Shown here one piece after another: positions 11,437-56,095 of a DNA stretch of 64,000 nucleotides. A program made the translations under genes and the position numbers. Positions within the stretch are counted from its first letter, which is position 1. Every line of letters starts with the position of its first letter. Below the pieces are notes generated by a model. That model worked only from the letters and a program-made list of their open reading frames with translations. It made no database searches and was not told the origin of the DNA. Location of the stretch: positions 1 to 64,000 of the forward strand of contig JALAGF010003705.1 in assembly GCA_030167865.1 (NCBI GenBank). Reading direction: 5' to 3'. Origin of the DNA: Craspedostauros australis (lineage: Eukaryota).

Positions 11437-14400
11437 TTACTGGCCATGGCCGACTTCTTGCATGCTGTAGAATCCATTGTGATCCAGCTGCGATGTCAGG
11501 AACCGCTGCAGATCCAAATCGTCATCTATAGCGCTTGCTGTATCCACCCACGCGTCCGTAGTCCCGGCCGTGAATCTATCGACGGGGTTGCTGTTGATTT
11601 GCTCCGTCAACAGGTGCACCAACTGGAACATCTTTCCATTGAAGACCTCGTTCGATTGGACGACGTGCTCGAGATGGGCCAGGTTAGCCATGCCGAAGAA
11701 TTCACGTTCCTCGGCGATGTCATTCTCGGATTCGAATCCCCACTGTCCTTGATTCACGCGGTACTGCGCGTGAAGCCGTTTCTCCGTCACGATATCCGTC
11801 TGGACCAGTGCTTCTTCCAGCACGGCCTCCTGGAAGACACAGAAATCGATGACAGTCTGCAACAGGTCTTGCAACGCCAAGCCAAGATCGTTGTTGTTGG
11901 CGTTGCCGGTGCTGATGGTGCTTGTGTTAACGTCATCACCAGGCGCAGCGTCCATGCCGAGAAGGCACTTGCGCGTGATCTTTGCCAGGTACCGATCGTG
12001 CGCGGCGATCATATCGTCCAGCGTATTCGCCGCGTCCATCTCCAGCTTGATCTGCTTCCAACCACCTTCGATCACTTCGAACATGATGTAGCTCTTGAAG
12101 TTGACGATGAAATGCATCATGGCCTGGCGCGTGATCGACATGTTGCGCAGCAGTGCCACCGCCTGCGCGTACTCCGCGCTGTTCGATTGATTGAGCCCCT
12201 TGAAATGCGCGGCCGTGTGAAGTGCGTGGTGAAGGATCGCACTTTGCCGCCACGTGTGGTTGAGCATGTATTCTGCACGCCGCAACCGGAACAGCAACGA
12301 GAAGACGACCTTGTACTTGTCGAGCGCCGCGTTGTGCACGATTGCCACAATGGGGTCCGGGACGGTGTAATCCAGCATGAAGATGTCCCAAACCGTTGGC
12401 GATGGTGTTTGTCTGCCGTTGATATCACCGTCCATGGAGAGGCCTGGATCCATCACAAGCTCCACCTGCAAACGATCGAGCACGTTTGCTGGGAGGTACT
12501 TGGCGTTCGTGTTGCGCAATGCGCTTTCGACTATGCTCAGCAAGGAGTGCTTGTAAATGGCGCTCTGCCTCTTCGCTCCGTTGAATTCGGCGTGGAGTCC
12601 ATCCATTAGGGCGGAGAAGAAGTCGCCTTGCCCCATGAACAGGAACTGCTTGATACCGAAGAGATGGTCCAGCAGGTTGTGGTTGGCTCTCAGCGACTCC
12701 AGAATATGGCTGTGCACGATCGCCGTGGCTTGCGTCAGCGTCGTTTCCAGCTTGTTGTTTCGGTTGAGCGTCTGGTCGAAGAAGTATCCCAGCGCTTTGG
12801 CTTTGTGGGCTGTGCCAGGCTTGGTGGGCTGCGCATCGTCGGCGGTGTCGAGTTCCATGGACCATGTGCTGTCCTGGAGACATTTTCGGATGAAGTTGAT
12901 TCCCTTGCCCACGTTGAAGGCTGGCTGGATCAAGGCGGTGTCCAGGATGCCTGTGGGGACCCTGGAAAGGACGACTTCGTATCGCTCATGCCAGAAATCA
13001 ACCTCGTTGGAATTCTCGTTCGCCCTGACGAAGAATTCATTGTGTGGATCTGACAGCACACCTTGCGTCGTCCAAAGGTACAGCATTTCGAACCACGGCA
13101 AGGAGGAGGCACGGAGCAGACGGTTGACGGTGTCGACATGGCGGCTGTCGCCGTGCATAGAATGGCGGTAAAGCGCGGTGAGGAGGAATCCACCAGAAAG
13201 CCTCTCCACGCTGTTGGTAAGCATCGTCAAATTCTTCAGCCGGTGCGTCGGTCCCCGCAATTCGATGAGAAGATGTCGTAGCGTCATCTGCGCCTCGCCG
13301 TTCTCCGTCGCAAATAATCGTGCCTCGAAACTGGAGAGCAGGGAGTGATAATCCCTCAGCTGGTTGACCAGCGTGCCGCAAAATGCCCTCGCGATCACAC
13401 CCTTGAGTTCATCGCCATGGACCAACTGGATGTATTCCTGAATCTTCTGATACAGCCATCCGGCCTCTCCGCAGATCTTGATGGCATCGATGGCACCCGT
13501 GCCTAGCCTCGTGTGGCGCATGTGCCCCGAGTACAGCAATGATTGCGATGTCGCCGCCGAAGATTGAACCCGCACACCATCGTAGTACTGGCAGAATTCA
13601 CCGCCTGCGGGGATAGCATCACGTTTGTAGAAGCGAATGCATTCGCCATCGATTCCCTGCAGAGAGTAGAGACACTCCTGCAGGATCTTGCGCTCCTCCT
13701 TGTGAATATCATGCTTGATTTCCTCCATCCTTTCTTCCGTCGGCATGTCCGGCAGGGATGATGTCCCCTTCTTGATGCCGCTCGCGTTAGACAGTGATGA
13801 TGCCGACATCGAGGCTGACATGGATATTGGCGTTGACACTATCGGTGGATGGTTCTGTTCATTCCCAGGCTCTAAATTGGTGTGATGTTCCATTGATCTC
13901 GATGGAAAAGCGTGCTGTGGTTGCTGCTGTTGCTGTTGCGGTTGCTGATGGGGAGTGTTGGCACTTATGCTCATGCTGGTGTTGCCTGCGGAGCTGTTGA
14001 TACTGATGACGTTGCCCATCGTGCGCTGATCTTTGCTGTCGCCAATCTGCATCTGTGACATGGCTTGAGCCAGATCATTGGAATCCGGTTCAGGTTGAAT
14101 GTTGCGAGGCTGTGATGGCGTACTCGCCGCCCATGTTTGTTGGTGCGTGGGCGTCGCTTGGTGCTGCTTCTTCTGTTGTTGTTGGTGGTGTTGTGGCTGC
14201 TGCTGCTGCTGCTGCTGCTGAGAGTACAAACTCTGAAGATGATTTTTGGCCATGACGCGACTCTTGGTGGACGTCGAGGCATGGATCTGCTTGTTGATGA
14301 CCTTGCTAAGGACAATGAGCAACTGCGGCGGTACATGTTGATGGTCAGGCAGATTGCGTTCCAATCGTTTGTACTGATTCTGGACGAAAGTGAGACAGTT

Positions 14401-14640
14401 CACATCCTGCGTCGATTTGCGCTCGATCCGTCGCCATGCCGACGTCAAATCCTTCATGGTCCTGCCATCGTCGATGTTGCCGCCGCCAACGCCAGAAGCA
14501 CCAGCCGAATTGGCACCGATCTGACTTCCCACAACCCGATGCGCCAATGACAGCGCTGCGTCCGCATCGTACTTATCGCAGTCCACAATGGCATAGACCA
14601 GCCGTTCCAGCGCATCCGAGCTCGCGGCATTGGTCGACAT
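11437..14640 (-). CDS. TUBGCP3: Gamma-tubulin complex component 3 (Spc98/GCP3)
   Basis: Spc97/98 GRIP motifs: LYSLQGIDG, GEAGWLY, GVLSDPHNEFFV, GKGINFIR, LLDHLFGIKQFLFMGQGDFF, WDIFMLDY, YIMFEVIE. Confidence 0.88.
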   Translation of the reverse strand: MSTNAASSDALERLVYAIVDCDKYDADAALSLAHRVVGSQIGANSAGASGVGGGNIDDGRTMKDLTSAWRRIERKSTQDVNCLTFVQNQYKRLERNLPDHQHVPPQLLIVLSKVINKQIHASTSTKSRVMAKNHLQSLYSQQQQQQQQPQHHQQQQKKQHQATPTHQQTWAASTPSQPRNIQPEPDSNDLAQAMSQMQIGDSKDQRTMGNVISINSSAGNTSMSISANTPHQQPQQQQQQPQHAFPSRSMEHHTNLEPGNEQNHPPIVSTPISMSASMSASSLSNASGIKKGTSSLPDMPTEERMEEIKHDIHKEERKILQECLYSLQGIDGECIRFYKRDAIPAGGEFCQYYDGVRVQSSAATSQSLLYSGHMRHTRLGTGAIDAIKICGEAGWLYQKIQEYIQLVHGDELKGVIARAFCGTLVNQLRDYHSLLSSFEARLFATENGEAQMTLRHLLIELRGPTHRLKNLTMLTNSVERLSGGFLLTALYRHSMHGDSRHVDTVNRLLRASSLPWFEMLYLWTTQGVLSDPHNEFFVRANENSNEVDFWHERYEVVLSRVPTGILDTALIQPAFNVGKGINFIRKCLQDSTWSMELDTADDAQPTKPGTAHKAKALGYFFDQTLNRNNKLETTLTQATAIVHSHILESLRANHNLLDHLFGIKQFLFMGQGDFFSALMDGLHAEFNGAKRQSAIYKHSLLSIVESALRNTNAKYLPANVLDRLQVELVMDPGLSMDGDINGRQTPSPTVWDIFMLDYTVPDPIVAIVHNAALDKYKVVFSLLFRLRRAEYMLNHTWRQSAILHHALHTAAHFKGLNQSNSAEYAQAVALLRNMSITRQAMMHFIVNFKSYIMFEVIEGGWKQIKLEMDAANTLDDMIAAHDRYLAKITRKCLLGMDAAPGDDVNTSTISTGNANNNDLGLALQDLLQTVIDFCVFQEAVLEEALVQTDIVTEKRLHAQYRVNQGQWGFESENDIAEEREFFGMANLAHLEHVVQSNEVFNGKMFQLVHLLTEQINSNPVDRFTAGTTDAWVDTASAIDDDLDLQRFLTSQLDHNGFYSMQEVGHGQ

Positions 14641-15347: not shown

Positions 15348-16337
15348 ATGACAGCCACCGTGAGTGATCAACGACATGTGACAAGCAAGATGACGATGAT
15401 TATGGAGACCGTGATGAGGACCTCTGGCTGGAATGCTCCGAGTTCAGAGCGAGCAATAGCGGTGATAGCCTCCAAAAGCGTGCGATATTCCTCGCGAGCA
15501 CCCAATCTCACATGATGTTTCCCAATCTGCCACCTCCCCCTCCTCCTTTCTTTCTGCCTTCCTCGAACACCCCCATGACAACACACGATGCAATGTCAAT
15601 AGAAGACTGCCCGTTACTACCCAGCTGAGGACATCAAGCCAGCTAAGGCCACACACAAGGTCAAGCAAAACGTAAGTTGCCACCTCAGTATCGTATCGTT
15701 GAATGGACGCGTTCCCGGCAGCTTCGGTGCTTGTGCGCCTCTTTCTCGTCGTGAATTGAAGCAACGTGGTTGAAAGTGCCGACGATGCCATCTCACCGAC
15801 TGTTCCACCCTCTCACTCACTCCAACCACAAACAAATAATCTTGGCGCTAACCTCTCCGCACCCATTTGACAAATTCGCAGGCACCACGAGTGCGCAAGT
15901 CCATCACACCAGGCACAGTCCTGATCCTGCTGGCGGGACGATTCAGAGGCAAGCGCGTTGTTTGCCTGAAAGCACTCGAGTCTGGATTGCTGTTGGTTTC
16001 TGGCCCATACAAAATTAACGGTGTCCCACTCCGCCGGGTGAACCAAGCGTACGTCATTGCCACATCAACAAAAGTGGATGTCAGCAGCGTCGATGTTGCC
16101 GACATCAACGATGAATACTTCTCACGATCCAAGGACGAGAAGAAGGACGGAGAGGAGGAATTCTTCGCAGGAGACGCACCAAAGCCAGCCGTTGTCACTG
16201 ACCAGAGAAAGGCCGACCAAGAAAAGGTCGACAAGGCCCTGACTGCTGCCGTATCGAAGGTTGACATGCTCGAGGGATACCTTGCCGCCCAGTTCACACT
16301 TACATCCGGAGACAAGCCCCACCTCATGAAGTTCTAA
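15348..16337 (+). CDS. RPL6: 60S ribosomal protein L6 (eL6); exons 15348-15359, 15603-15671 and 15882-16337
   Basis: RYYPAED and RKSITPGTVLILLAGRFRGKRVV...GPYKINGVPLRRVNQAYVIATST...PHLMKF. Phase-0 introns at 15360-15602 (GTGAGT...TAG) and 15672-15881 (GTAAGT...GCTAAC...CAG). The 12-nt first exon (MTAT) is inferred. Confidence 0.95.
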
Positions 16338-17073
16338 TGCGCAGGATGTACTGAGTAAACAAAATAAAAAGCGAATATTCCATCCCGTATCATCCATCCG
16401 CTGCGTGCTGGAATAGATTGTCAGAAGTGTGAACGAGTTAGTAGTGCGGTCGCACCATCATCGCTGCTTCGAAACCCCTATCCCTCACAGAATGCGGAGG
16501 CGCCAGAGATATCTTGTTGTGGTCAACACCCCAAGAACCTACCTCGCTTGTCGGTAGGATTGGAATTGGGACAGGTGATAGGTTGTACTCCATCTTTAGC
16601 TCGTAGCACGCTGAAACAACCTGATTCCCCGCAAACGATGCTTGGATGGATGGTTAGTGTATGATTTGGAGATTGGCATCTAGTAAAATATTATGTTATT
16701 CTAGTATGTACTCGGCTCCATCATGCCTTCAACCAATTCCACCCAACCTCCCCGTTCAACTGTGCGCATCAGCTATTCTCGATACGATACGCTACGGTGC
16801 GAGGAGAGAGAAAGAGGTTGTTGCTGATCATTCCTCGATTCGTTCGATCCACGTAGGTGCGCCTCACCACTTTTCGGTGCGTGCCGATGCTCCACATGTC
16901 AACCCGAAAAGTGATCTTCCTTCCAATCTCACCACCCAACTTCACCTCTCTTGTCACCATCGGCGACCACGCGTCACAAGGCCAAAACCAACTCCAGCCC
17001 ATCCATCATCCATCATCCATCATCCATCAGTCTCCATCCACGGTCTCACGCAACACCAGTGACTAACACCACC

Positions 17074-17865
17074 ATGATGACGATGATGATGCAATCCACT
17101 CCTCTCCGTCTCGGTCTCCTGGCCGCAATTGCATGCACAGCATCCTTGACGTGCAGCGCATTCTCCATCAGCAGCAGCAGCAGCAGTATTGGCAGAGCAG
17201 CAACCACAACAGCACGTCGCACCAGCACGGCCGTGTTTTCGTCCTACATCATCGAACCAGATGATCTCAGCGATGACGTCGGCGTCGACCCCAACAGCGG
17301 TGGTGTGGGCCTGGCATTGAACTGCGCCACGCGCATTTGCGGTGCCGTCTCGTCGAAGGGCGAAGTTGAGCCCGCCGATATGAGTCTGTTCGATGCCTTG
17401 TCCGAGGTCGCGTCGGCACCCACGACGATCGCCGCCATCGGCGAAGGCAAGGAGAACTACGTGGATCCAGGCAAGGGCACCAAACAAGAGATCTTTTACG
17501 GTCCCATTGAAGCCATGAAGGATGTCCTCAGCAACCTCAACGTCGCGGATCTGGACGGCAAGCAGAAAGTGATAATCAACCTTCTCAGCGGTGATGATCT
17601 GATCCTGGGTGAAGTGATGGATGCGATTTCCCAATTCGTGAAAGAAACTGGTGTCGCGCCCAAGAAGCAGAAGATTGAATTCAATTCCATCTCCTTCAAG
17701 GACATCGAGCGGGGTGACTGCACCATCACGATCGTCCTGGGCGATGGTGAGAGTGCCGAGGATGTCAGCGGAGCCGACAAGTCCGTGGCCAACGGCGAAG
17801 TCTACTTCTACAAGGACAAGTACTACACCGTGGATGAGGCGAACTTGAACACCAGCGACGAATAA
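17074..17865 (+). CDS. Predicted plastid-targeted protein with an FtsZ/tubulin C-terminal-like domain and no GTPase domain
   Basis: Signal peptide ending CSA-FS, then a Ser/Thr/Arg-rich transit peptide (diatom ASAFAP-type). The C-terminal half resembles the FtsZ C-domain pattern (AIGEG...DLDGKQKVIINLLSGDDLILGEV...IEFNS...CTITIVLG). Confidence 0.6.
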   Translation: MMTMMMQSTPLRLGLLAAIACTASLTCSAFSISSSSSSIGRAATTTARRTSTAVFSSYIIEPDDLSDDVGVDPNSGGVGLALNCATRICGAVSSKGEVEPADMSLFDALSEVASAPTTIAAIGEGKENYVDPGKGTKQEIFYGPIEAMKDVLSNLNVADLDGKQKVIINLLSGDDLILGEVMDAISQFVKETGVAPKKQKIEFNSISFKDIERGDCTITIVLGDGESAEDVSGADKSVANGEVYFYKDKYYTVDEANLNTSDE

Positions 17866-18052
17866 ATGAATGAAAGATTGAGCAAATAAGTGAAAGATTG
17901 ATTTAACTTAGAGCAGCGCAGCACACTCGTATGTCATGGTACCACAGAGATTGACTGGCGAATGGCCAGGCCGAGCTACGACATTGGTGTTGCATCCAAA
18001 GCAACACAATGATGCAATGGCGGTAGCTGAGCATCGTCGTCGTGGTATGTCA

Positions 18053-19918
18053 CTATTGTCCTTCCGTTGACGGCTTGCCATCTGGTTCGAACGATGAATC
18101 ATCGTCCGCATCCGTCCCATCATCCTTGCTCTCTTGCGGTCCTGGATCCTTGGCAGTTACTTCCATCGCAACGGGCGGCGTTTCCGATGTATCCACCACG
18201 GCCGACGTCAGCTCATCGGTGCTGTTCACGATGTTCTCCAACATTTTAGAAGACGGTTTCCATCTGCGTGTCGATGTTCTGCTGGAGGAATGCGCCATGC
18301 TGGGTTCTTGTGTTTGTAAGACCGCTGCCATGCCGTCGCCTGCAACGTCCGCACACGTTGTTTTGGAGACATTGATCTTCACATCTACGTTTTGACCATC
18401 GGTCTCTGCTTCTTGTTTGACAGTCTTTTCGTTGGATGGATCTGACTTGATAGATTGTACGGGGGCACTTTGTGACTGGGCATTCTCGCCAGCAACCGAA
18501 CTTGGCACCACTTCAGTGGTTGGTGCATCCGATTGGAGTGGATTGGATGTAGCTTCTGGTACTGTTGGTACTGTTGGGTCTTCGTCACCTGTAACTAATG
18601 ATGAGGAAGGCCCAAGATCATTCACAGAAGCTGTTTTTTCGGCATCAATCTCACCATGCGTGCCATCGCTCTTATGCGCCGCCGCTGTTGTCATCGAAGA
18701 CGAAGCAGTCGTCATGGGAACGTCCGTATCCTCCTTTCCTTCTGCGAGGTTGGCCTCCTGCAGCTGCTCTTGTTCTTTCTGCTGCCGCAATTTCTCTGTC
18801 TCCAACCTCTCCCTTTTGAGTTTTTCCCGTTCCTCCTCTGCTTTTATCTGCGCCATCGTCTCGCCATACTTGTCCAATGACAGACCTTGTTTGTAACGTC
18901 GTCGTAGTTCCTTGAATGTAGCAATGTCCACGTAGCCCATGCCAGTCAATGGATCCTTGTATCGCGCTACTTTGCCTGTGATCGCGCACAGAGTTTGTGT
19001 TGCCTTCTTTGGCGGTTCCTGTGATCGTGATAGCACATCCGGCACGTAGTCCATCTCGGGGAATGTGAGCGTGATCAGACGGCCGCGCCTCGAATGGTAT
19101 TTCTGGATGATCTTGGCGCGTGTCCGGTCCCTCGACAGCAGCAGGTCCTTATCCTGATCCGCCAAATCCTGCACGCGCTTGCGAGACAGCAACCATCTTC
19201 TGTTGCCTGGCTCCGTTTCGTGCACGGCCTCCAGCAGCAATTCTTCCTGCTTGTACTTGCGTCGCATCAACTTCTTTGCGGAAATGACGACAGGCTTGGG
19301 TTTGCTTTTGGCTTTTGATTTGACGGATGTTTTCGTGGCGGCAGATGCAGTCGCTGCTGCTGGATGCCGTTGCGATCCTTTCTGCACCTGTGAGACTGGC
19401 GGTGTCAACCTCCCAGGCGTCCCCTTGTGTTGGCGCGAAGCAGCAGCAGCAGCAGCAGCATTCGCTGTTAGGCCCGTGACAGGACTGCCAACACCCGGCA
19501 TGGGCAGATTCAGAACGATCCCGGCATTCATTCCATCCCCCATCATGGTCCGCTTGCCCTTGCCTTTCTTCTTGGCCATGAGATCTCTGCCAGCCTTGGC
19601 AATGTCCACGTACTGGCCTCCACCACCGCCGCCTCTCTTGCGTCGTTTCTCGGACCTTCGCAGCGTCGATTCGGCATCGGCGGCCGCCGCGATCTCGTCG
19701 GCTTCATTGTCGCTCTCGCTGTCGTTGAAGTCGGAGTCGAAGACATCCTTGCGCAGCGCCGAGTCCTCGTCTGATTCACGGAAGGATTCGTTGCCGCTGT
19801 CGGAACCGTCCGCCCACGTATTGTGGCCCCAGAACATGTCGTCATCTTCCTGAGCCTTGCCGACGAGCTCCGTCATGCGCTTGCCCGCGGTTTTGCGCCG
19901 TTGTCGGCCTTCCGTCAT
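18053..19918 (-). CDS. VPS72: SWR1 complex subunit VPS72/YL1 (Swc2)
   Basis: N-terminal RRKTAGKRMTELV, DVFDSDFNDSE and QEELLLEA..TE..N; YL1_C motif CAITGKVARYKDPLTGMGY. Confidence 0.88.
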   Translation of the reverse strand: MTEGRQRRKTAGKRMTELVGKAQEDDDMFWGHNTWADGSDSGNESFRESDEDSALRKDVFDSDFNDSESDNEADEIAAAADAESTLRRSEKRRKRGGGGGGQYVDIAKAGRDLMAKKKGKGKRTMMGDGMNAGIVLNLPMPGVGSPVTGLTANAAAAAAASRQHKGTPGRLTPPVSQVQKGSQRHPAAATASAATKTSVKSKAKSKPKPVVISAKKLMRRKYKQEELLLEAVHETEPGNRRWLLSRKRVQDLADQDKDLLLSRDRTRAKIIQKYHSRRGRLITLTFPEMDYVPDVLSRSQEPPKKATQTLCAITGKVARYKDPLTGMGYVDIATFKELRRRYKQGLSLDKYGETMAQIKAEEEREKLKRERLETEKLRQQKEQEQLQEANLAEGKEDTDVPMTTASSSMTTAAAHKSDGTHGEIDAEKTASVNDLGPSSSLVTGDEDPTVPTVPEATSNPLQSDAPTTEVVPSSVAGENAQSQSAPVQSIKSDPSNEKTVKQEAETDGQNVDVKINVSKTTCADVAGDGMAAVLQTQEPSMAHSSSRTSTRRWKPSSKMLENIVNSTDELTSAVVDTSETPPVAMEVTAKDPGPQESKDDGTDADDDSSFEPDGKPSTEGQ

Positions 19919-21812: not shown

Positions 21813-24800
21813 ATGGGGTCATCTCACTCCGCACCGCGCAGACCGAGCGCCCGTCGGTCGATGCTGGGCCAGAACGCGCAGCACAACAGCAACGGGCAGG
21901 ACGCGGACAGCGATCCCTCGGACTACCCCACGGCAGCCGAGCGGCGACGAAGCCACAGCGACCTCTATGCTGGAACCGCGGGCTTCGGAACGGGTCAGCA
22001 CCGCGAGGACTACGCAGAGCGCCGAATGACCTACAGCTACGATGGCTTCGGGCCTGCTGCTGCGCTGTACGGGGCGGAGGACGCGGACTCCGGTTCGTTC
22101 TACTCCCGCCACTCCGCCGCTCATTCCGCCCCCGCAGCTTCCAGGCAGAGGCAGCGGCCCAGCAGGTTGCTGTCGCCGGAGGACACGGAGTTCATCGGCA
22201 TGACCACCAACGCGGCGGCTGCGGGATCCGCTTCAGCGGCGGCGGCCATCGGTGGCATGGCCTCCCTCAACTCCAACGAGACCATCAACCGCCGTGAGGA
22301 AAGGTCGCGACGTGCCAGCGGCGCTGGCACCAGGAGATCCGGCCGCATGGGCAGAAAGAACTCGAGTCGCAGCATCGGTGGCAGCGAAGTCATGGACAGC
22401 GTGGACGAATTGGCGATCTCCATCAACCCGTCCACGGCGCCCACGACGACATCGCCGGGACCATCGTCGGGGCGGCCTCACGCGCTGCTGCCGTCCGCAT
22501 CGGCTGCACCGACGGCTCTGGCGGGACAGATCAATGCGGCGTCGTCACGATCCAACGCGCCGCCGTCTCCATACTATCCATCCGGCCAGCAGCAGCTCTC
22601 GAATCCGTACCCGTCGATGCTGCCTCCGACGAATCATCATCAGCAATCCGGTGATCCTCGAATGGTACGCAGATGCGATTCATGTATTGTTGTGTAGTGT
22701 GCAGCGCGCAAGACGGGGTATCTGATGATGACGAACTGCGATGCGGATGACTGGTGCACATTATTTTTAATGTATGGGAATGCGAGCAGGGAATGCCAGC
22801 AAGAGAACAACAACATACCGATTCATGCATGCATCATTGAGGCTGCATCTCGCGTACCCGCGTTCTGACCGTCTGTGCTCTGCTCTACATGCAAGTCCGG
22901 ATACTCACTTTTGTACTACTGCACACTTTGCTCCGTTCCATGCCGCTCTCATCCTTCTCTTGACGACATTTACGTACTCGATGGACTCTCGCCTTCCATT
23001 CCGTCTACTCGCACAGCACCAGAGCTCGTCGTACAATCCCAATGCCCACCCATCGATGATGTCAACAGTGTCGGGAGTATCGTCGTACAGTCACATTTCC
23101 TCCAATTCGTCCATGAACTCCTCGCTTCCTCCGTTTGGAAATCGCTCAGCAACAATGATGGAACCTGTGGTGCATGAACAGCAGCAGCACCCGCACCATG
23201 GTCCAGGCAGCACGAACAGCATGGTCAGCTCTGTGAATACGAGCATCTCGCATGAAAGCTTCCGATTGGGCGGTGTGGCAAACAACGCAGTTGGCACTCC
23301 TGCCGGAGGCAACGGCGGCAGCGGCGCGCCCAACGTCGCTGGCAGAACGGGGCCGCCATCGGTCGCAGGCAGCCAGCATTCGCAGCAACAGCTCCCACCG
23401 CAATCTCAGCAAATGCCAAGCGCCCACGACGAGGCCTCTCAATACACACAGCCGCATGCCGACTTCTTCCCGCAGGGCAGTCGCCGGCACGAATGGATGG
23501 GGCGCAGCATCGAAACGTTAATCTTGGGTTACGGCAGAGTGGCTCCCATCCTCTGCCTGCTGGAAGATGAAGACGATCGTCGATCCGGCGGGGCGCCGTA
23601 CGGTCATGGTGGATACGGGCATGGCGGCGGATACGGCATCCCTGGCAGCGAAGATGGATCCGGCAGCGTGTGGGGACCGCAACCACGGCGGAGGAGCACC
23701 ATCAGCACCCTGGGCAGCGAACTCGGCAGGCGCAGCAGCCTTGGGAGCTTCCCCGGAAGCAGACGCGGGAGTCTGGTCGGACGCGACAATCCATCCATGA
23801 TGCACGGCGGAACGCTTGCCAATTACTACAACCGTCGTCGTGGCACAACCAGCGGCCCGGCTGGGAATGCCTCCGCGCAAGGTGGCCCCGTTGACGCCAA
23901 CGGCTACGAGAGAGGCGCCGCTCCTGGAAGCCGTCGTGGTTCGGCCGCGACATCCTACAGCGGCAGCAGAAGAGGTTCCGCCTCACACGGACCATCCTAC
24001 AGACGCCGCATGTCAGTGTCCCGCATGAGCGCCGACGGCAGCGACGGTAGCTGTCCGCCATCCTCCTCCGCCACGGGTGGACCCAATGTGGTATTTTCCC
24101 TCATGGCACGAGAGTACACGGGCCGTGGCAAATCCAAGAACCCCAAGCCGATGGCACGGAGGTTGAAGGATTTTGGCGGTCAGGCACTCTTCGCGTCCCT
24201 CGATCGTCCGGCCGGAGGCATTTGCTCCGAAGTCACCTTCTTGTCGGAGGTAATTGACAGCGGTGACTGGTCGGAAACACAAGCCGTAATTTCGAGAATC
24301 GCACCGCGTCTGATCGGCGACCCAGCCGCCGCCATGCAGGCCGCCAACGATGGAGCGCGAGGCACCAACAGCATAGACGATGCCCACCTCCCACCCAACG
24401 CCTCCAGGTACTACGCCGGTGGAGGGCGGCTCGGTTTGGAACGCGACGCATTTGTGCTTGCCGGAGGCATCGACGTGCTCATGCGCATCTTTCGGGAACC
24501 CGGCTTCGTCGGCGAAGAAATGGCCCAAAGCTACGACGCCCGCGACCTGAGCGAGGAACTCGTTGCCACGCGTCTCGCAGCCTGCTGGAATGAAGTGCTG
24601 ATATCATTGCGGGAGTTGGTAGACGCCATCCCCTCCCTCGTGGAGCACAAGGAGATCTCGGATGGCGGCGAATTCGTGCCATTCCTTTTCACGCTGCTGG
24701 CGCATGATTCATGCTTCGACAGCGCTGCACCATTGATCGAGGAAATCCTCAGTCTGCAATCGCATTCACCGCCCCAACCACTGCCGGACGTCGACGCTTT

Positions 24801-27675
24801 ACCATCCATGGAGGACGGTCCCGTGCAGCCAGTTCTGGGCCGTTCGCCGCCACCCACGACGTTCTTCCTGGGCAACGTGACCGATCTGTACAAATTGTGG
24901 GAAGGATTCAACTGCCGACAGCTGGCGCATTTTTGCAGAATTCTGGCGCTCCTCGTGTTCGAACCAGAAGACAGACAGCTGCTGGAAAGCCCGACCGTTC
25001 TCAAGTCGATCGAATTGCTGCAGCTCCGTCGCAACCGCGCCGCGCGGGCTGGTCGTGATTCGACGGTGGACATGAATCAGTCGATAATGCTGGGAGATGA
25101 ACAGCTCGTCGGTCGTTTGCTGAAATTGCTGCGCATCATGAACTTCGCCCCGACCTTGCGCCGCAGCTCGCCGTACCACGTCATGGCGCACTTTCCGTTC
25201 ATTGCCGACACCTTGGTCATGCTTGGCCTCAACGAATTGGATAACTGGGATGATGTGGATCGTATGGAGGAGCTTGCGCGGCAGATCATCAAGGAGTGGA
25301 CTCCAAGTGACGTCGCAAACGGTGGCGATACCAACGGTGGCGGCGGCACTTCGAGCAGCAGCAACGAAGGCGAGAATGGAGAGCCAGCCAACGATGGACC
25401 ACCAGCCGTCAGCGACCTCGGCTCTGTGGCCACCATGCTCGAGCAGCTCTCCAATACGCTCATGGGCAACGCGACAGAGCCATCAAATCAACTGGGGCAC
25501 ATCATCCATGTCATCAGCGCGGCGCAGCAGGCCGGGGTCGTGGTCGGTCGCAACCCCCGAAATTCCAGTCGAAGACTTCGAAGGAGCACGGCAAGCAGGA
25601 GCTACCAAGATGGATCGGATGACGACATGGAGGAAGGGGATGATCAGGCCCAGGGTATTAACCCAATGATCGACCCTATGTTCGCCCAGCAGTTGCAAGA
25701 CAGAGAAGCCGAGCTTGATGACATTGAGAATAATCCGTCAATACAGGTTGTCGGCATCGGACTTGAGGGCGCCAACATTCGTGACTCGTTAACAGGCCAG
25801 ACACGGTCTCTCGGCCTCCGAACACCTGAGGATGCCGCAAATTCGCTGCAGTTCAATGCTCTGCTTCTCGGTCCGTACCAGGTCGAAGTTCTGTTCGTGC
25901 TCTGCACCCTCCTTGGCGGACGCAGGAAGCTCGACGCCCAGGACATCCTGAACGAGCTCAGCATCATCTCGATTCTCGATGATATGTTCGGCCGGTTGCC
26001 GTGGGATTCATTGACGGCAACGAGACAGCCCATCATCCGAACATCAGACGAGGATCAGAACGGTGCCGGAAATGGACAGGGCGATCAGCAGCCGCACGGC
26101 ATCCATGGTCCGGGATGCGACTGTACGCCGGAAAGCGCTTTATGCGTGCAGTACCTGCGTCTGTTGCACAACTTCTGCGACAGAGACTGTGATAACTACT
26201 CGGGTCGCAGGCTTTTGCTGAGTCAGGCCGAACGTCGTTACGTATTCGACCAGTTGCCGAACGTCGCGCACTGTGACATCTCGAACCTCACGCCAGGTCT
26301 GCTGTCCAAGGTCATCGCCGCATTCGTCGGCGAGTCCGAAGAATCTCCGTACAGGTTCTGGCTGGCAAGCTGCATCGAGTCCTACTTGCGTGGATCGTCC
26401 GCGACCGAGCAGGTCTTCGTGGCGCACACGGGGCTGTTGGAAAATTTGATTGCTGACATCACGAGCGAGCGGTTGCATTGTGCGGGAAGCCTGCAAACAT
26501 CTTTCGATTTGCTGGGGGAGCTGTGCAAGGGCAACGCGCAAGTGCTCGACCTACTGGTGAGCAACCTCGACGAGGAGAAATTCCGAAAGCTCATGAGCGT
26601 CGCAGCCGCGAATCTGGTGGACTCCAACGTCTTCATCCGTTCTCTCATCCTGAGCCTCGAACGCCTCTCATCGGCAAAGGGTCTCATGCCGTTGCACATC
26701 GATGAACAGCAAGCCATGGCGCGCAGAGGCTCGTGGAGCAGTCACAACGGTGATTTCTCGCGCAACTACCTTTCGCATTCTTGGTGGGATACCCGTCTGG
26801 TCGATGTGCAGCAAAAGGACCGCGGCGCGGAGAAGTCCATGCAGAACGACGAGGCGATCATGGACAGCGCACGGTCCTCGGATTGGTTCCCTTCTATGGG
26901 CATGATCCAATCGTTCGGCATACAACCCCCGGCTGGCCTGGGAATCAACCCGTCAGTCGGCATGAACGACAGCGTGGGTCACTTCGGCTGGGTCTTCACC
27001 CCTTCCGGCGACATGTTAAACGACGCCGCGCATGCTCCGAACACAGTCGAGCGACTCTCGTGGTTCCTATCGGCCAACCAAACAAGGCTGCTGCGGGATT
27101 TGCTGCGGGTTGTCGACCTGCGCAACATCAACCATGAAAACATCTGCTGTCTCAACACAGCAGTCGTCATCGCCATCTTCGCGCACCGAAGAAACCAGCT
27201 GCATATCTTGTTGCAGGATCTGAGACGCATGAACGAGGAAGAGAAGGCCACAACCCGACGTGCGATTGATGCAACGCACAACGATAACGTCATCGATCGC
27301 GCATTCGTGCAAGCGATGAAATACTTGGACATCGATAGAGAGACGCCGCCGGCTCCTTACACACGACGAGCGTCTCTCACGCGCCGAGGCTCCACGTCGA
27401 CCTCCGCAAATGACATGGCGGACAGAAACGACGTCATGAGAAACTTCCGTGAAGTGCTTTGGTTCTGGTTCGAGTACTACACCCACAGGGGCCGGGACAG
27501 GCTTTCGCTGGAATTTTCCTCTCACCTCCGCTTTCAGGAATGGATAGAGGTCGTCTCGTTGCTCGGTGCCGACAATGGGTCGCCAACGGCGTTGGTCCGG
27601 CGACCGATCCGTCTGCCGCGCAGTCCGTATCAACGTGCCCCGCGCATTGCTGATGGTTCCATGAGAAGCACATAA
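21813..27675 (+). CDS. TRPC4AP: TRPC4AP/TRUSS-like protein (DUF3689) with a long disordered N-terminus; exons 21813-22664 and 23017-27675
   Basis: HGPGCDCTPESALCVQYLRLLHNFCD, SPYRFWLASCIESYLRG, LQTSFDLLGEL, NLVDSNVFIR, INHENICCLNT and NFREVLWFW..YY..RGRDR.SLE match TRPC4AP blocks. Phase-0 intron 22665-23016 (GTACGC...CAG) joins the two ORFs in frame. Confidence 0.82.
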
Positions 27676-45147: not shown

Positions 45148-46827
45148 TTACTTGGTGACAATGATTTGCCTTGGTCCGGACAGTGGTTCCGAAGCACGGT
45201 GAATAGCGTAGTCACTGTAGAATGGAAAGTCGTTGGCACGGTACACCTGGACGAAGTAGCTGAGTTTCGTCGATCCATCCTCCTGGATGTCCATGCCATC
45301 CAAAGCTGTCTTCACGTCAGCGTCGGTGGTCTCGACGGTGGCAAGTCCTGGCAGAGAGCCTGCCATTTACGTACGGCAAACGTGGCAAAGCATAGCATAG
45401 CGTAAGGAATGGGTCAGTGCGTACATGATCCACAACAGAAGCACAAGCACAAAAGAAGAAGAAGAAGAAGAAGAAGGAAGGCGGCACACCAAACCGCAGT
45501 ACACACGAGGTATGAGCAACAACAAGACAGAACCACGAAAGAACTCACCTCCGACTGTGACGACTGGAGCGCCAGCCTTCTCCGCGATGGCCACGACGGA
45601 ACGCGCCGATGTGAAGGCGGACTTCTGCGCATCCGTCAGGAAGGCCAAAGCTTCGGCCTTGGCACGCACGCCCTTGGCAGCATCGATCACCTTGGCAGCC
45701 GCCTCGAGATCCGGCGTGACATTGAGGATGGCGCCAACGACTGGGCCACCTGCCTTGGCGCTGTTCTCCGAGGCGTAGGTTGCTGCGTTGCTGGGAGAGA
45801 AGGAGTAGGGGAAGGCATCGTCCGCGCCGTTGAATTTGGAGAGCTCCTCTGGCTTTTGCATGAGGTCTCTGACGATGTGCGGCGGGGAGAAGTAGTGCGA
45901 CTCGTCGCCGGAGATGACGTCGGTGGTCTGTTGCCAGAACTTGTTGCGGAAGATCTCGTACTGCTCGGTGGTGAAGTATGCCTCCAGCTGCTGCTTGTCC
46001 ACGGGCGGTGCGCCCGGCGGGTACTGCGCCAGGTAGGCCTCCATGTTCGTTCGGAAGGTGTCCTTGTCCTTCTCCATGCCCAGGAACTGGAGGCTGGCTG
46101 GGTCGACGGCGGCTGGCAGGTCCTCCGGGTACATCTCGGCGTAGGCCAGGAGGTTGGCCTTGAACTCTTCGAGGCACTCCTCGGCGCTGTACTTGGTGAG
46201 GCCCTCATCGCCGGAAGAGATGCTGTCGACGAGGTCGGCGAAGGTCTTCTTGCACAGGGCGTACTCCTGCGAGACGCCGGTGCCTGGCTCCGGGATCATG
46301 GCCTTGATGTACTCGTTCATGTCCTCGTGGCAGGAGTGCTCCGAGCCCACGACGCCCACCACGGCGTGCCCGGCGGCCGCTCCCAGCTGCGCTGCGGCCA
46401 TGCCGCTCGGCTGGCTGGCACCGAAAACCAGCAGGGTGCCTGGTGCGGTCCCGGCCATGCGGACAGCCGCGGCGCCCTCCGCAGCCGGTCTGAGCATGGC
46501 CAGGTACTCCAGAGGAATGTAGGCCGCCGCATCTCCCAGATCTCCGAAGGTGCCGTGCACGACGGAGCCATCGGGGCTGTAGGCGGCGGAGTCCTCCATG
46601 GACAGCTTGCCGCTGGCCACATCGACGGTGTGGGCCGACGTAACGACGGAGCGCTCGATGGCGCCCGGGTCCTTGGGCTTCTCCGGCGCGACGCGGATCT
46701 TCTGCTTGGGGAGGTTGTCCAGCAGAGCCTGCGGGATGGCGTACGGGTTGCTCACCTTTCGTCGGGTGTGCAGGCCTCTGGTTGCGATCTGTCGCAAGGC
46801 CTTGCGGGAGAGCGAGGAGTTCATCAT
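45148..46827 (-). CDS. Probable mitochondrial protein with a divergent MDR-type Rossmann fold; exons 46827-45549 and 45359-45148
   Basis: Arg/Ser-rich presequence MMNSSLSRKALRQIATRGLH; IPLEYLAML...GTLLVFGASQPSGMAAAQLG.AAG resembles medium-chain reductases. Intron 45548-45360 (GTGAGT...CAG) gives VTVG|GSLPG. Very strong codon bias. Confidence 0.62.
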
Positions 46828-47815
46828 CGTCGTCGTCGTCTTTTGGTTTGGTTTGGTTGCTCTGCAGCGGTGTTGTTGGTGACGGTCCTGGTGGCTACGA
46901 CAAAGGAGACAAGTCTGGATGCTTCTGCTGTCTCTCCTCTGTGCTGTTGTGATGGGTGGTGCACATGCAGAGTTTTCGTTGGGCACAAGCCATCGACGAT
47001 GGCAACAACAACGGCGTTGGCGTCCGATCACCATCGTCCAACGTTTTTCTCTGTGCTTGTTGTTGCTGTTTTGGTTTGGGGCTTTTCGAGTACCTCTCCA
47101 AGTTCTGAAATGGATCTGTTCGGTTCGGTTGCGACAGGAGCAACCGCGTAGCAAGCGTTCATGCCCCCCAGAGAGACCACGCTGCTCGTACCATACTATT
47201 ATGTATTAAATGATATGCCATGACATCGTCATCTTCAATGAGCGAGAGGATAGCAATGCAATACGTCGATGCAATTCTGCAGTACTTTGCTCCGTCTCAT
47301 TCTGCATTTGCCTGCCGATCGCATTCACAAGTCGCCAGGTCGATGCAGCAAGCGAAGGTCCATGGCTGTACTACGTGGAGCATGAACACGATAGCGGAAG
47401 CCCCGGGTGCACCACTCTTCGTCAGGTGGCGTTTGTGCCATGCTGTCACCATGCGATGGGTGGTATCTTCCTGGCATCGAAGTCAAATAGCGTGCAACCA
47501 ACCTCCTGTAACGAAGATCGTCGCTTGTTTGAGATTCGACAGCTCAAGCCAAATTAGCCCAGCCACGCGAAACCTCTCAATTGACCAAAAGGATTTCATC
47601 ATCCGCAGAATGAGGAACGAGCGCACAGGAATAACAATCGAAAATAAGGCTTGGGCGGAGCATGTGGGTGAAGTTGGTGTCTGCTCAAACTGGAGATCAT
47701 TGCTGAAGATGAAATTAGAGCATAGGGAACGTCAACACAAACTTCTCAATACCTCACGACACACAGGGTAATTGATGTCAAAATACGCTACCATCGGCAG
47801 CATAACCACCCGAAA

Positions 47816-55029: not shown

Positions 55030-56095
55030 TCACTGCGTCCCCAAACGTTGACCACCGGTGCCCCATTGATGCCTAGCCTGAGCTGCAGGAGGAGCGGCAG
55101 CAACGCGTCGACCACCACCAGCACCAGCAGCAGCGGGCGGAGCATCCACCTCAGGCGTGTACTCCCCAACTCCAAAGTAATCGAGCAGGAAATTGGGCGT
55201 CGTCAGGACCTGCTTGCCGTAGACCGCCGGCACGACGTCGACCAAGAAATAGTACAGGTGACCCACCGCGAGTCCGTGCAGCATGTCCATCCATGACGAT
55301 CCCATGAAGACGGTCAATGCGAGATACGCGAAGGGAAGGTAGTTAGCCGCCATGGGGATTCCCCATATGTTGGCCTGTGATGTTGGATGGCGCTTGCTCC
55401 ACACGTAGAGGACGTAGTAGATGAGGTTTCGAGAAAAGACGGGAGGCAAATCCAGCGGGAATATGGCGAAGGTGAGCAGGATGGCGACGGCGCCGAAGAT
55501 GAGGCAGAATGCGTAGTCGGCGGTGCCGCCACCCGCACCCGTGTTGAAGGGACCGCCAGCCTCGTACTGCTTGCTGAACTGCACGAGCATGTAGGCGCTG
55601 ATTAACGTGTTGAATTGGAACGGCCCGACGAAGCAGAAGCTGGTGAGGAACCTCCAAATCTCAAAGTTGTTCTTGATGAGGGACCAATCGTACATGACCT
55701 GCGGGATGCTGACTATGCCAAAGTTGGCGCTGAGGGTCACGATCATGGTGGCACCGAACCAATATCTGGTGACGAACGGCAGCGAGTTGAACCATTGCTG
55801 CGGGAGGATAGTGGAGTGCAGGAGTGCAATAATGAAGACAGGCAGAGAGAGAGAGAGAGAGGGCATAGGGGTAGAGGGGGAGAAGCAGAGAGAGAGAGTT
55901 GATCAGAATGGAGAGATGGAAACAAGAGTAGCACACAGCCCAGTGCGAAATTGAATGGCCTCAACTACAATTGCCTGGTCTGTCTGATCATGCTCCATCT
56001 CCTTTCACCGCATTGACGACATGCACATCGAATGCACTCACGTCTGGCCCCGCTGGGTTGTTGACCTCCCCATTTCCAGGTTGAGCAAATGGCAT
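55030..56095 (-). CDS. DER1: Derlin (host-type ERAD Der1); exons 56095-56042 and 55797-55030
   Basis: WFNSLPFVTR, EIWRFLTSF, YVLYVWSK, YLPF, GLAVGHLYYFL, LTTP, and a C-terminal SHP box WGTGGQRLG. Exon 1 is MPFAQPGNGEVNNPAGPD with intron 56041-55798 (GTGAGT...CAG). There is no signal peptide, so it is not the symbiont SELMA derlin. Confidence 0.92.

Follow-up and report, generated by a model that had tools for sequence, protein, structure and literature searches.

The window analysed here is a stretch of 64,000 nucleotides from Craspedostauros australis (assembly GCA_030167865.1, contig JALAGF010003705.1, positions 1 to 64,000), and the gene considered is the open reading frame (ORF) at 17074..17865 of its forward strand. 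This frame is intact from ATG to stop, consists of a single exon and comprises 263 codons plus the stop; it is flanked upstream by a gene for ribosomal protein L6e and downstream by a convergent YL1-domain gene, in ordinary eukaryotic nuclear DNA with a GC content of 0.48-0.61 per 2 kb. Very probably it is a single-exon nuclear gene of a diatom, coding for a plastid-targeted protein that has a core homologous to the C-terminal subdomain of FtsZ (FtsZ_C) and lacks the features of the FtsZ GTPase domain. The first ATG of the frame is at 17074, and the frame is open further upstream as far as a TTG at 16951. The start region is a cluster of ATG codons (MMTMMM), in which the true initiator is ambiguous; the public record of the same protein has 262 amino acids and begins at the second ATG, at 17077. 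Just upstream of the start codon, the presumed 5' leader contains a short run of CATC/CATCCAT-type repeats at 16985-17040 (catccatcatccatcatccatcatccatca).

Homologues were sought by a single-sequence HMMER search against 1.84 billion representatives. The search returned only proteins of this one family: 117 at E≤1e-3 including the protein's own record (116 non-self), 88 at E≤1e-10 and 3 at E≤1e-30. Nearly all relatives are 215-300 amino acids long, mostly 230-290, and most match from the presequence to the C-terminus. The query and 85 of the 116 non-self matches were combined in an alignment of 86 rows, to which the counts given below refer; the 31 matches omitted by eye were mostly fragments, partial matches, a protein of 530 amino acids (P0101) and most of the weakest matches. 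The consensus is conserved from the presequence through to the last residues, and the ORF is confirmed as a real, conserved gene, far beyond what chance would produce. Several relatives are transcripts marked 'type:complete', of about 260 amino acids and colinear end to end, which supports the single-exon model.

The organisms named in 30 clusters (Stephanodiscus triporus, Pseudo-nitzschia pungens, Leptocylindrus aporus, Chaetoceros debilis, Attheya sp. CCMP212 and Fragilaria crotonensis) are all diatoms, bar one record labelled as a foraminifer, and every descriptive name in these clusters is 'hypothetical protein' or 'Uncharacterized protein'. For the majority of relatives no organism is given, so that 'diatom-wide and diatom-only' describes what the named records show and not a proven range. 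The foraminifer record, labelled Nonionella stella, shares a 90%-identity cluster (that of P0073) with Chaetoceros debilis; its data set probably contained material from a diatom.

Queried with the single protein, a word-indexed homologue search returned its own record alone; queried with the alignment, it returned 16 proteins, none of which has a Pfam domain. Set to longer proteins (654-2000 amino acids), this search found no fused forms at E≤0.01, which is weak evidence that there are none. The 10 longest relatives have no Pfam domain at E≤0.01 save one chance-level match to Bflower_3, and in particular no GTPase or MORN domain. One relative, P0101, has an insertion before the C-terminal hairpin and an E/K/D-rich tail of about 200 residues, again with no Pfam domain. 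Three further relatives (P0111, P0116 and P0118; the named member is from Leptocylindrus aporus) make up a divergent subgroup with a consensus of its own (VIKGFTD.D..G.D...GGVGLA, ...C.N.CGG..L), which may have branched off early or represent a paralogue. In two of its three presequences, W and not F seems to follow a short hydrophobic stretch.

The central part of the protein, residues 119-223 (17428..17742, forward strand), has the order strand, helix, strand, helix, strand, strand, and profile, Pfam, model and Foldseek results all bear on its ancestry: it is very probably a distant homologue of the C-terminal subdomain of FtsZ. A likeness to the FtsZ C-domain had been the substance of the original prediction, and all the strings quoted there (CSA-FS, AIGEG..., VIINLLSGDDLILGEVMDAISQFVKE and CTITIVLG) are present in the translation of 17074..17865. 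The likeness is borne out by sequence searches. The profile of the alignment, compared with 177,635 distinct PDB sequences, gave 38 matches at E≤10, and 37 of them are FtsZ; the remaining match, Ytm1, was rejected as chance. The best match is B. subtilis FtsZ (2vam_A, E=1.1e-5), with profile positions 144-225 aligned to chain residues 238-319. When the members of the alignment were scanned separately against Pfam, FtsZ_C was the commonest family, matched by 37 of the 86 at E≤1 (best 1.2e-5), followed by a family matched by 7 members.

Structure prediction points in the same direction. The AlphaFold2 model computed from the alignment has a mean predicted local distance difference test score (pLDDT) of 85.2, a predicted template modelling score (pTM) of 0.73 and 175 residues at a pLDDT of at least 90; each 10-residue block of residues 71-260 has a pLDDT of at least 85. 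The core of the model consists of strand 119-126, helix 143-154, strand 165-172, helix 178-192, strand 200-207 and strand 215-223. A Foldseek search of the PDB with this model gave 94 matches at E≤1e-3, and all among the matches listed are FtsZ. The best is 3wgk_A (E=2.7e-5, probability 1.00). Bacterial FtsZ proteins align over 103-113 columns at 17-23% identity, and identity across the Foldseek alignments as a whole is 14-23%. Structural neighbours in the Atlas are FtsZ_C and FtsZ clusters.

The most FtsZ-like motif of the protein is N-x-x-G-G-D-D-L-x-x-x-E-V at residues 169-181 (17578..17616, forward strand), as seen both in column counts and in hhalign comparisons. N169 is kept in 81 rows, the two glycines in 83 and 80, D175 in 73, L176 in 65, and E180 and V181 in 77 each; the window protein itself carries S at the first G of the family motif. 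In the hhalign alignment the motif stands opposite N263, A266, G267, D269, L270, L272 and E274 of E. coli FtsZ. Of these positions, L272 is the site of L272E, a mutation described as lying in the polymerisation interface and locking FtsZ in the monomeric state (PMC12754632).

The rest of FtsZ is missing. The presequence is separated from the FtsZ_C-like part by only about 60 residues, and the GTP-binding signature of tubulin and FtsZ, GGGTG(S/T)G, occurs in none of the 86 rows when searched as GGG[TS]G[ST]G. Likewise, no Tubulin/FtsZ GTPase family of Pfam matches the window protein, and there is none among the first 25 of the 47 families listed for the 86 members, in agreement with the claim made at the outset that the GTPase domain is absent. 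The T7 synergy loop of FtsZ has the motif N-x-D-x-x-D/E. Matches of the type N.D..[DE] occur in 6 of the 86 rows, five of them far from the expected T7 position and one (P0102) near it. This catalytic loop, at the bottom of one subunit, is described as having to contact the GTP pocket atop the adjacent subunit (PMC7010359). In the AlphaFold2 model, strands and not a helix H7-loop-H8 arrangement precede the FtsZ-like domain; an extension of the hhalign alignment into the H7/T7 part of FtsZ (family positions 98-118) is not read as a retained T7 loop, as the model has strands there. FtsZ further possesses a flexible linker and a conserved C-terminal peptide for membrane anchors. No FtsZ-type C-terminal peptide ([DE][IVL]P.[FWY][LIMV]) is present in the last 40 residues of any of the 86 rows, and the median tail past the column of T252, the last conserved one, is 11 residues. 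As judged from the sequences, these comparisons show that the protein is not an FtsZ, and neither a GTPase nor a normal FtsZ subunit. Since the GTPase domain, tubulin signature, H7/T7 and C-terminal anchor are lacking, it is predicted to be unable to bind GTP or to polymerise like FtsZ. The term 'truncated FtsZ', by which the protein had originally been described, is therefore apt in part: the homology to the FtsZ C-terminus and the lack of a GTPase domain stand, but the term undersells the divergence, because about half of the mature protein is family-specific and not FtsZ-like.

The mature protein has about 205 amino acids and is soluble and acidic (39 D+E versus 17 K+R); the median net charge of the mature parts in the family is -15. 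Its first family-specific portion, residues 58-118 (17245..17427, forward strand), consists, according to alignment and model, of an acidic lead-in, a short helix (GGVxLA) and a long beta-hairpin. I60, D72, G76, G77 and V78 are nearly invariant in this segment, and G90 is the one invariant residue of the 86 rows; model pLDDT exceeds 85 from residue 71 onward. The segment has no match in the profile search of PDB sequences. A separate AlphaFold2 model of residues 58-141 (pLDDT 86) gave no Foldseek match in the PDB at E≤1e-3, the best having E=1.4, and an Atlas search with residues 58-122 gave scores of at most 0.78, with unrelated families in its structure rows and a poor model. Within residues 58-118 (17245-17427), the hairpin of the window protein departs from that of the family: it reads GAVSSKGEVEP and LFDAL where most relatives have G-x-V-K-H-K-P-G-K/S-A and L-x-R-Y, and the segment spans 38 residues as against a typical 45-52.

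Two further elements are particular to the family, as defined by alignment and model. An inserted hairpin, ExYxDPG..., occupies residues 127-142 (17452..17499, forward strand), between the first strand and the first helix of the FtsZ-like domain; E127 is found in 82 of the 86 rows, and P132 and G133 are nearly invariant. In the hhalign alignment E. coli FtsZ has a gap opposite the insertion, and the model places strands at 128-130 and 139-141. A conserved C-terminal tail, residues 224-263 (17743..17862, forward strand), is composed of a variable acidic loop, a short helix and a small hairpin (GEVY...GK..TV.E.DIN), with G241 and T252 nearly invariant and model elements at 233-239 (helix), 244-246 and 249-252 (strands).

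The N-terminus of the protein has the composition of a diatom-type bipartite plastid presequence, checked here by alignment counts and composition. Residues 1-29 (17074..17160, forward strand), ending in ...LTCSA, form a predicted signal peptide for the endoplasmic reticulum (ER), recognised by its hydrophobic core, with a maximal 9-residue Kyte-Doolittle mean of 2.6. In the family, 15-35 residues precede the F/W column in 68 of 78 rows and a hydrophobic 9-mer above 2 is found in 65 of 78. The signal peptide is followed by an ASAFAP-type cleavage-site motif, CSA|FSI (17152..17169, forward strand), with F30 immediately following the predicted cut. At this site the +1 column has F in 76 rows, W in 2 and a gap in 8, so that all 78 occupied rows are aromatic, and 74 rows have a small residue in the -1 column (A 49, S 16, G 9). 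Residues 30-57 (17161..17244, forward strand) resemble a transit peptide in S+T content and charge. Over the 30 residues 30-59, S+T amounts to 50%, the net charge is +3 and there are zero acidic residues; in the family, this stretch has a median of 27% S+T versus 14% in the mature part, and among 78 rows it carries a net positive charge in 62, no net charge in 8 and a net negative charge in 8. The bipartite signal of diatoms is described as a signal peptide, an 'ASAFAP' cut site and a hydroxylated, positively charged transit peptide, with the phenylalanine at +1 crucial for plastid import and a net positive charge also needed (PMC4329603). Plastid targeting, which had been proposed from the first reading of the gene, is thus a strong prediction: given its signal peptide, F at +1 and a transit peptide that is positively charged and rich in Ser/Thr, the precursor is expected to cross the four plastid membranes into the stroma.

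Among known systems, the closest comparison is with FtsZ itself. The diatom protein shares with the FtsZ C-terminal subdomain (PF12327) the order strand-helix-strand-helix-strand-strand, a G-x-G strand end and N-x-x-G-G-x-D-L-x-x-x-E. Unlike FtsZ, it has no N-terminal GTPase domain, tubulin signature, H7/T7 loop, linker or C-terminal peptide, and adds the DPG hairpin insertion and family-specific N- and C-terminal elements. ARC3 is not known outside the green lineage. [quoted passage not shown] The likeness to ARC3, drawn from such descriptions, is one of concept: both proteins are nuclear-encoded, plastid-targeted (by prediction in the diatom) and carry FtsZ-derived sequence. The FtsZ-like domain of ARC3 is, in contrast, longer and accompanied by middle and MORN domains, whereas in the diatom protein the C-terminal subdomain alone is recognisable; no MORN domain of Pfam matches the window protein or stands among the first 25 of the 47 families listed for the 86 members.

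SulA and MciZ are inhibitors that bind the polymerisation faces of FtsZ, and PDB entries exist of FtsZ with each of them. As small non-GTPase proteins that bind an end or face of FtsZ they offer a working analogy, in which binding by the diatom protein is hypothetical; unlike the latter, they are unrelated to FtsZ_C in sequence and fold. A further parallel is found in the FtsZ-like families of the Tubulin_2 type (Makarova and Koonin 2010), described as keeping the GTPase domain without FtsZ_C and Tubulin_C (PMC9871819). The diatom family is, like these, a partial derivative of the FtsZ/tubulin superfamily, but its mirror image, as it retains the FtsZ_C-like part alone.

A role in plastid division is plausible as a hypothesis. 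The proposal as a whole, of a plastid protein with an FtsZ_C core that acts as a non-polymerising accessory factor of the plastid Z ring, is put forward tentatively, as the likeliest specific role and yet a reading that falls somewhat short of probable. A stromal, FtsZ-derived factor of this kind would act on plastid FtsZ, docking through the retained N-x-x-GG-DDL-x-x-x-EV surface, which is aligned with part of the FtsZ polymerisation interface, and would alter filament growth or turnover without stimulating GTP hydrolysis, as ARC3 acts in plants. Having kept part of the bottom face of FtsZ and lost T7, it could sit on the GTP face of a subunit and promote neither hydrolysis nor growth, serving as a cap or modulator. 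No ARC3 or MinC equivalent is known in diatoms. The most specific version of the proposal, a lineage-wide stromal regulator derived from the rear half of FtsZ that caps filament ends and so sets Z-ring length and turnover, is unlikely as it stands. Such an end-capper would neither permit growth at the filament end nor trigger hydrolysis, because it has no T7 loop, and it may fill the place held by ARC3 in plants.

Several observations count against the accessory-factor proposal, and they are set out here together with the rival explanations to which they lend weight. The most serious rival accepts the gene, its plastid targeting and its FtsZ_C ancestry, and supposes co-option of the domain for a stromal purpose that has nothing to do with FtsZ or division; we rate it almost as likely as the accessory-factor proposal. 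The N-terminal hairpin, DPG insertion and C-terminal hairpin would then carry the function, for example as a small scaffold or as a self-assembling or ligand-binding unit. Co-option is consistent with the extreme divergence from FtsZ, which at 14-23% identity in Foldseek alignments requires a profile for detection, and with a mature protein of which about half has no detectable relative. Both the T7 loop and H8 are missing, which also makes a simple reading in which a truncated FtsZ caps filaments less straightforward. Many of the best-conserved positions have no counterpart in FtsZ: D72, G76, G77, V78, G90, E127, P132 and G133 are all family-specific, which hints at a function of the protein's own. 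Folding alone, with the motif serving as a turn and helix cap, could account for the conservation of GG-DDL-EV. In addition, the window protein is without the common HKPG and RY motifs of the family in its N-terminal hairpin. On the other hand, no other function is suggested by the searches of Pfam, NCBIfam, PDB sequences, Foldseek or the Atlas, which gave nothing but FtsZ, and the best motif shared with FtsZ aligns with a polymerisation-interface residue and not with the buried core alone.

A different rival concerns the compartment. The plastid localisation is itself a prediction, and 8 of 78 transit stretches are net negative, so that the protein might remain in the ER or secretory pathway, or halt in the periplastidial compartment or the intermembrane space, and not reach the stroma. 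This is improbable given the aromatic residue at +1 in all 78 occupied rows, the typical transit-peptide composition and the absence of any hydrophobic segment from the mature part of the model, the +1 phenylalanine and a net positive charge being described as needed for plastid import (PMC4329603).

A third rival would have the likeness to FtsZ_C arise by convergence on a common small alpha/beta fold, the family being an unrelated diatom invention. The single protein matches Pfam FtsZ_C (PF12327) at residues 155-190 with E=0.084 and 13.6 bits, where the gathering threshold is 27, and a PDB search with the single sequence gave a chance rubredoxin match alone (E=1.3). The NCBIfam scan of the single protein found no family, and its Pfam matches to S_layer_C (E=0.034) and DUF7546 were set aside as chance. 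By hhalign, the alignment gave E of about 0.009 both with E. coli FtsZ (probability 4.6%) and with a narrow FtsZ profile (probability 4.4%), the latter built from 19 gammaproteobacterial FtsZ sequences of 67-99% identity; this outcome agrees with homology but would not persuade by itself. Foldseek template modelling scores (TM-scores) normalised to the whole query are 0.26-0.29, low because about 105 of the 263 residues align; Atlas feature scores are at most 0.80, the level of a lead, and the Atlas's own model is poor. Moreover, the model and the Foldseek result are not independent of the profile search, as the same alignment underlies all of them. Convergence is nevertheless very improbable. 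Sequence without structure gives FtsZ as 37 of 38 PDB matches, up to E=1.1e-5, FtsZ_C is matched by 37 of 86 members scanned independently, and N-x-x-G-G-x-D-L-x-x-x-E stands in register with the same secondary-structure elements. The Pfam and structural checks that had been suggested for the gene thus yield a weak match for the single sequence, a significant one for the family and an FtsZ-like fold.

A wrong gene model, a pseudogene or a chance frame is scarcely credible: the start is ambiguous among the ATGs of MMTMMM and the frame is open upstream to TTG 16951, but the protein is colinear over its full length with 85 relatives including complete transcripts, neither the antisense ORF at 17020-17634 nor the upstream ORF at 16661-17062 has a Pfam family, and an Rfam scan of 16000-19000 found no RNA family.

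The gene therefore belongs to an unnamed, unstudied family in which an FtsZ-derived domain is set in a new, lineage-specific, plastid-targeted architecture; this identity is solid, and a role as division regulator is hypothesised for it. In the literature searched, with most subscription journals outside its coverage, neither a stand-alone FtsZ C-domain protein nor this family is described. Division of the four-membrane plastids of diatoms is poorly understood, and, if the accessory-factor proposal is true, the family would add a new conserved, plastid-targeted division component derived from the division protein itself. It would also offer a natural case of the FtsZ/tubulin C-terminal subdomain as a separate protein, which bears on how the halves of FtsZ work and evolve. 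Even if it is unrelated to division, it is an unnamed diatom-wide family whose fold can be assigned with confidence but which escapes current Pfam thresholds, and it is open to direct experiment in transformable diatoms.

Elsewhere in the window are genes for an SNF2-family ATPase, a gamma-tubulin complex component, Pex16, Rad4 and a Der1-like protein. The gamma-tubulin complex protein (GCP) gene, at 11437-14640 on the reverse strand, encodes both N- and C-terminal GCP domains (E of about 1e-52 to 1e-56) and lies about 2.4 kb upstream of the FtsZ_C-like gene; its nearness is taken as coincidence, because its product and the FtsZ_C-like protein act in different compartments. Two overlapping ORFs on opposite strands, 45367-47034 (reverse) and 45409-47151 (forward), are 555 and 580 amino acids long, neither with a Pfam family at E≤1e-5. 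GC content reaches 0.59-0.61 in 22001-26000 versus 0.48-0.57 elsewhere, a region that lies inside a long ORF at 22774-27675 with DUF3689. Diatoms employ symbiont-derived copies of Der1 in the import machinery of the second plastid membrane, and the Der1-like gene of the window, at 55030-55866 on the reverse strand (Pfam DER1, E=2.9e-37), could be either of this plastid type or of the type that serves ER-associated degradation in the host.

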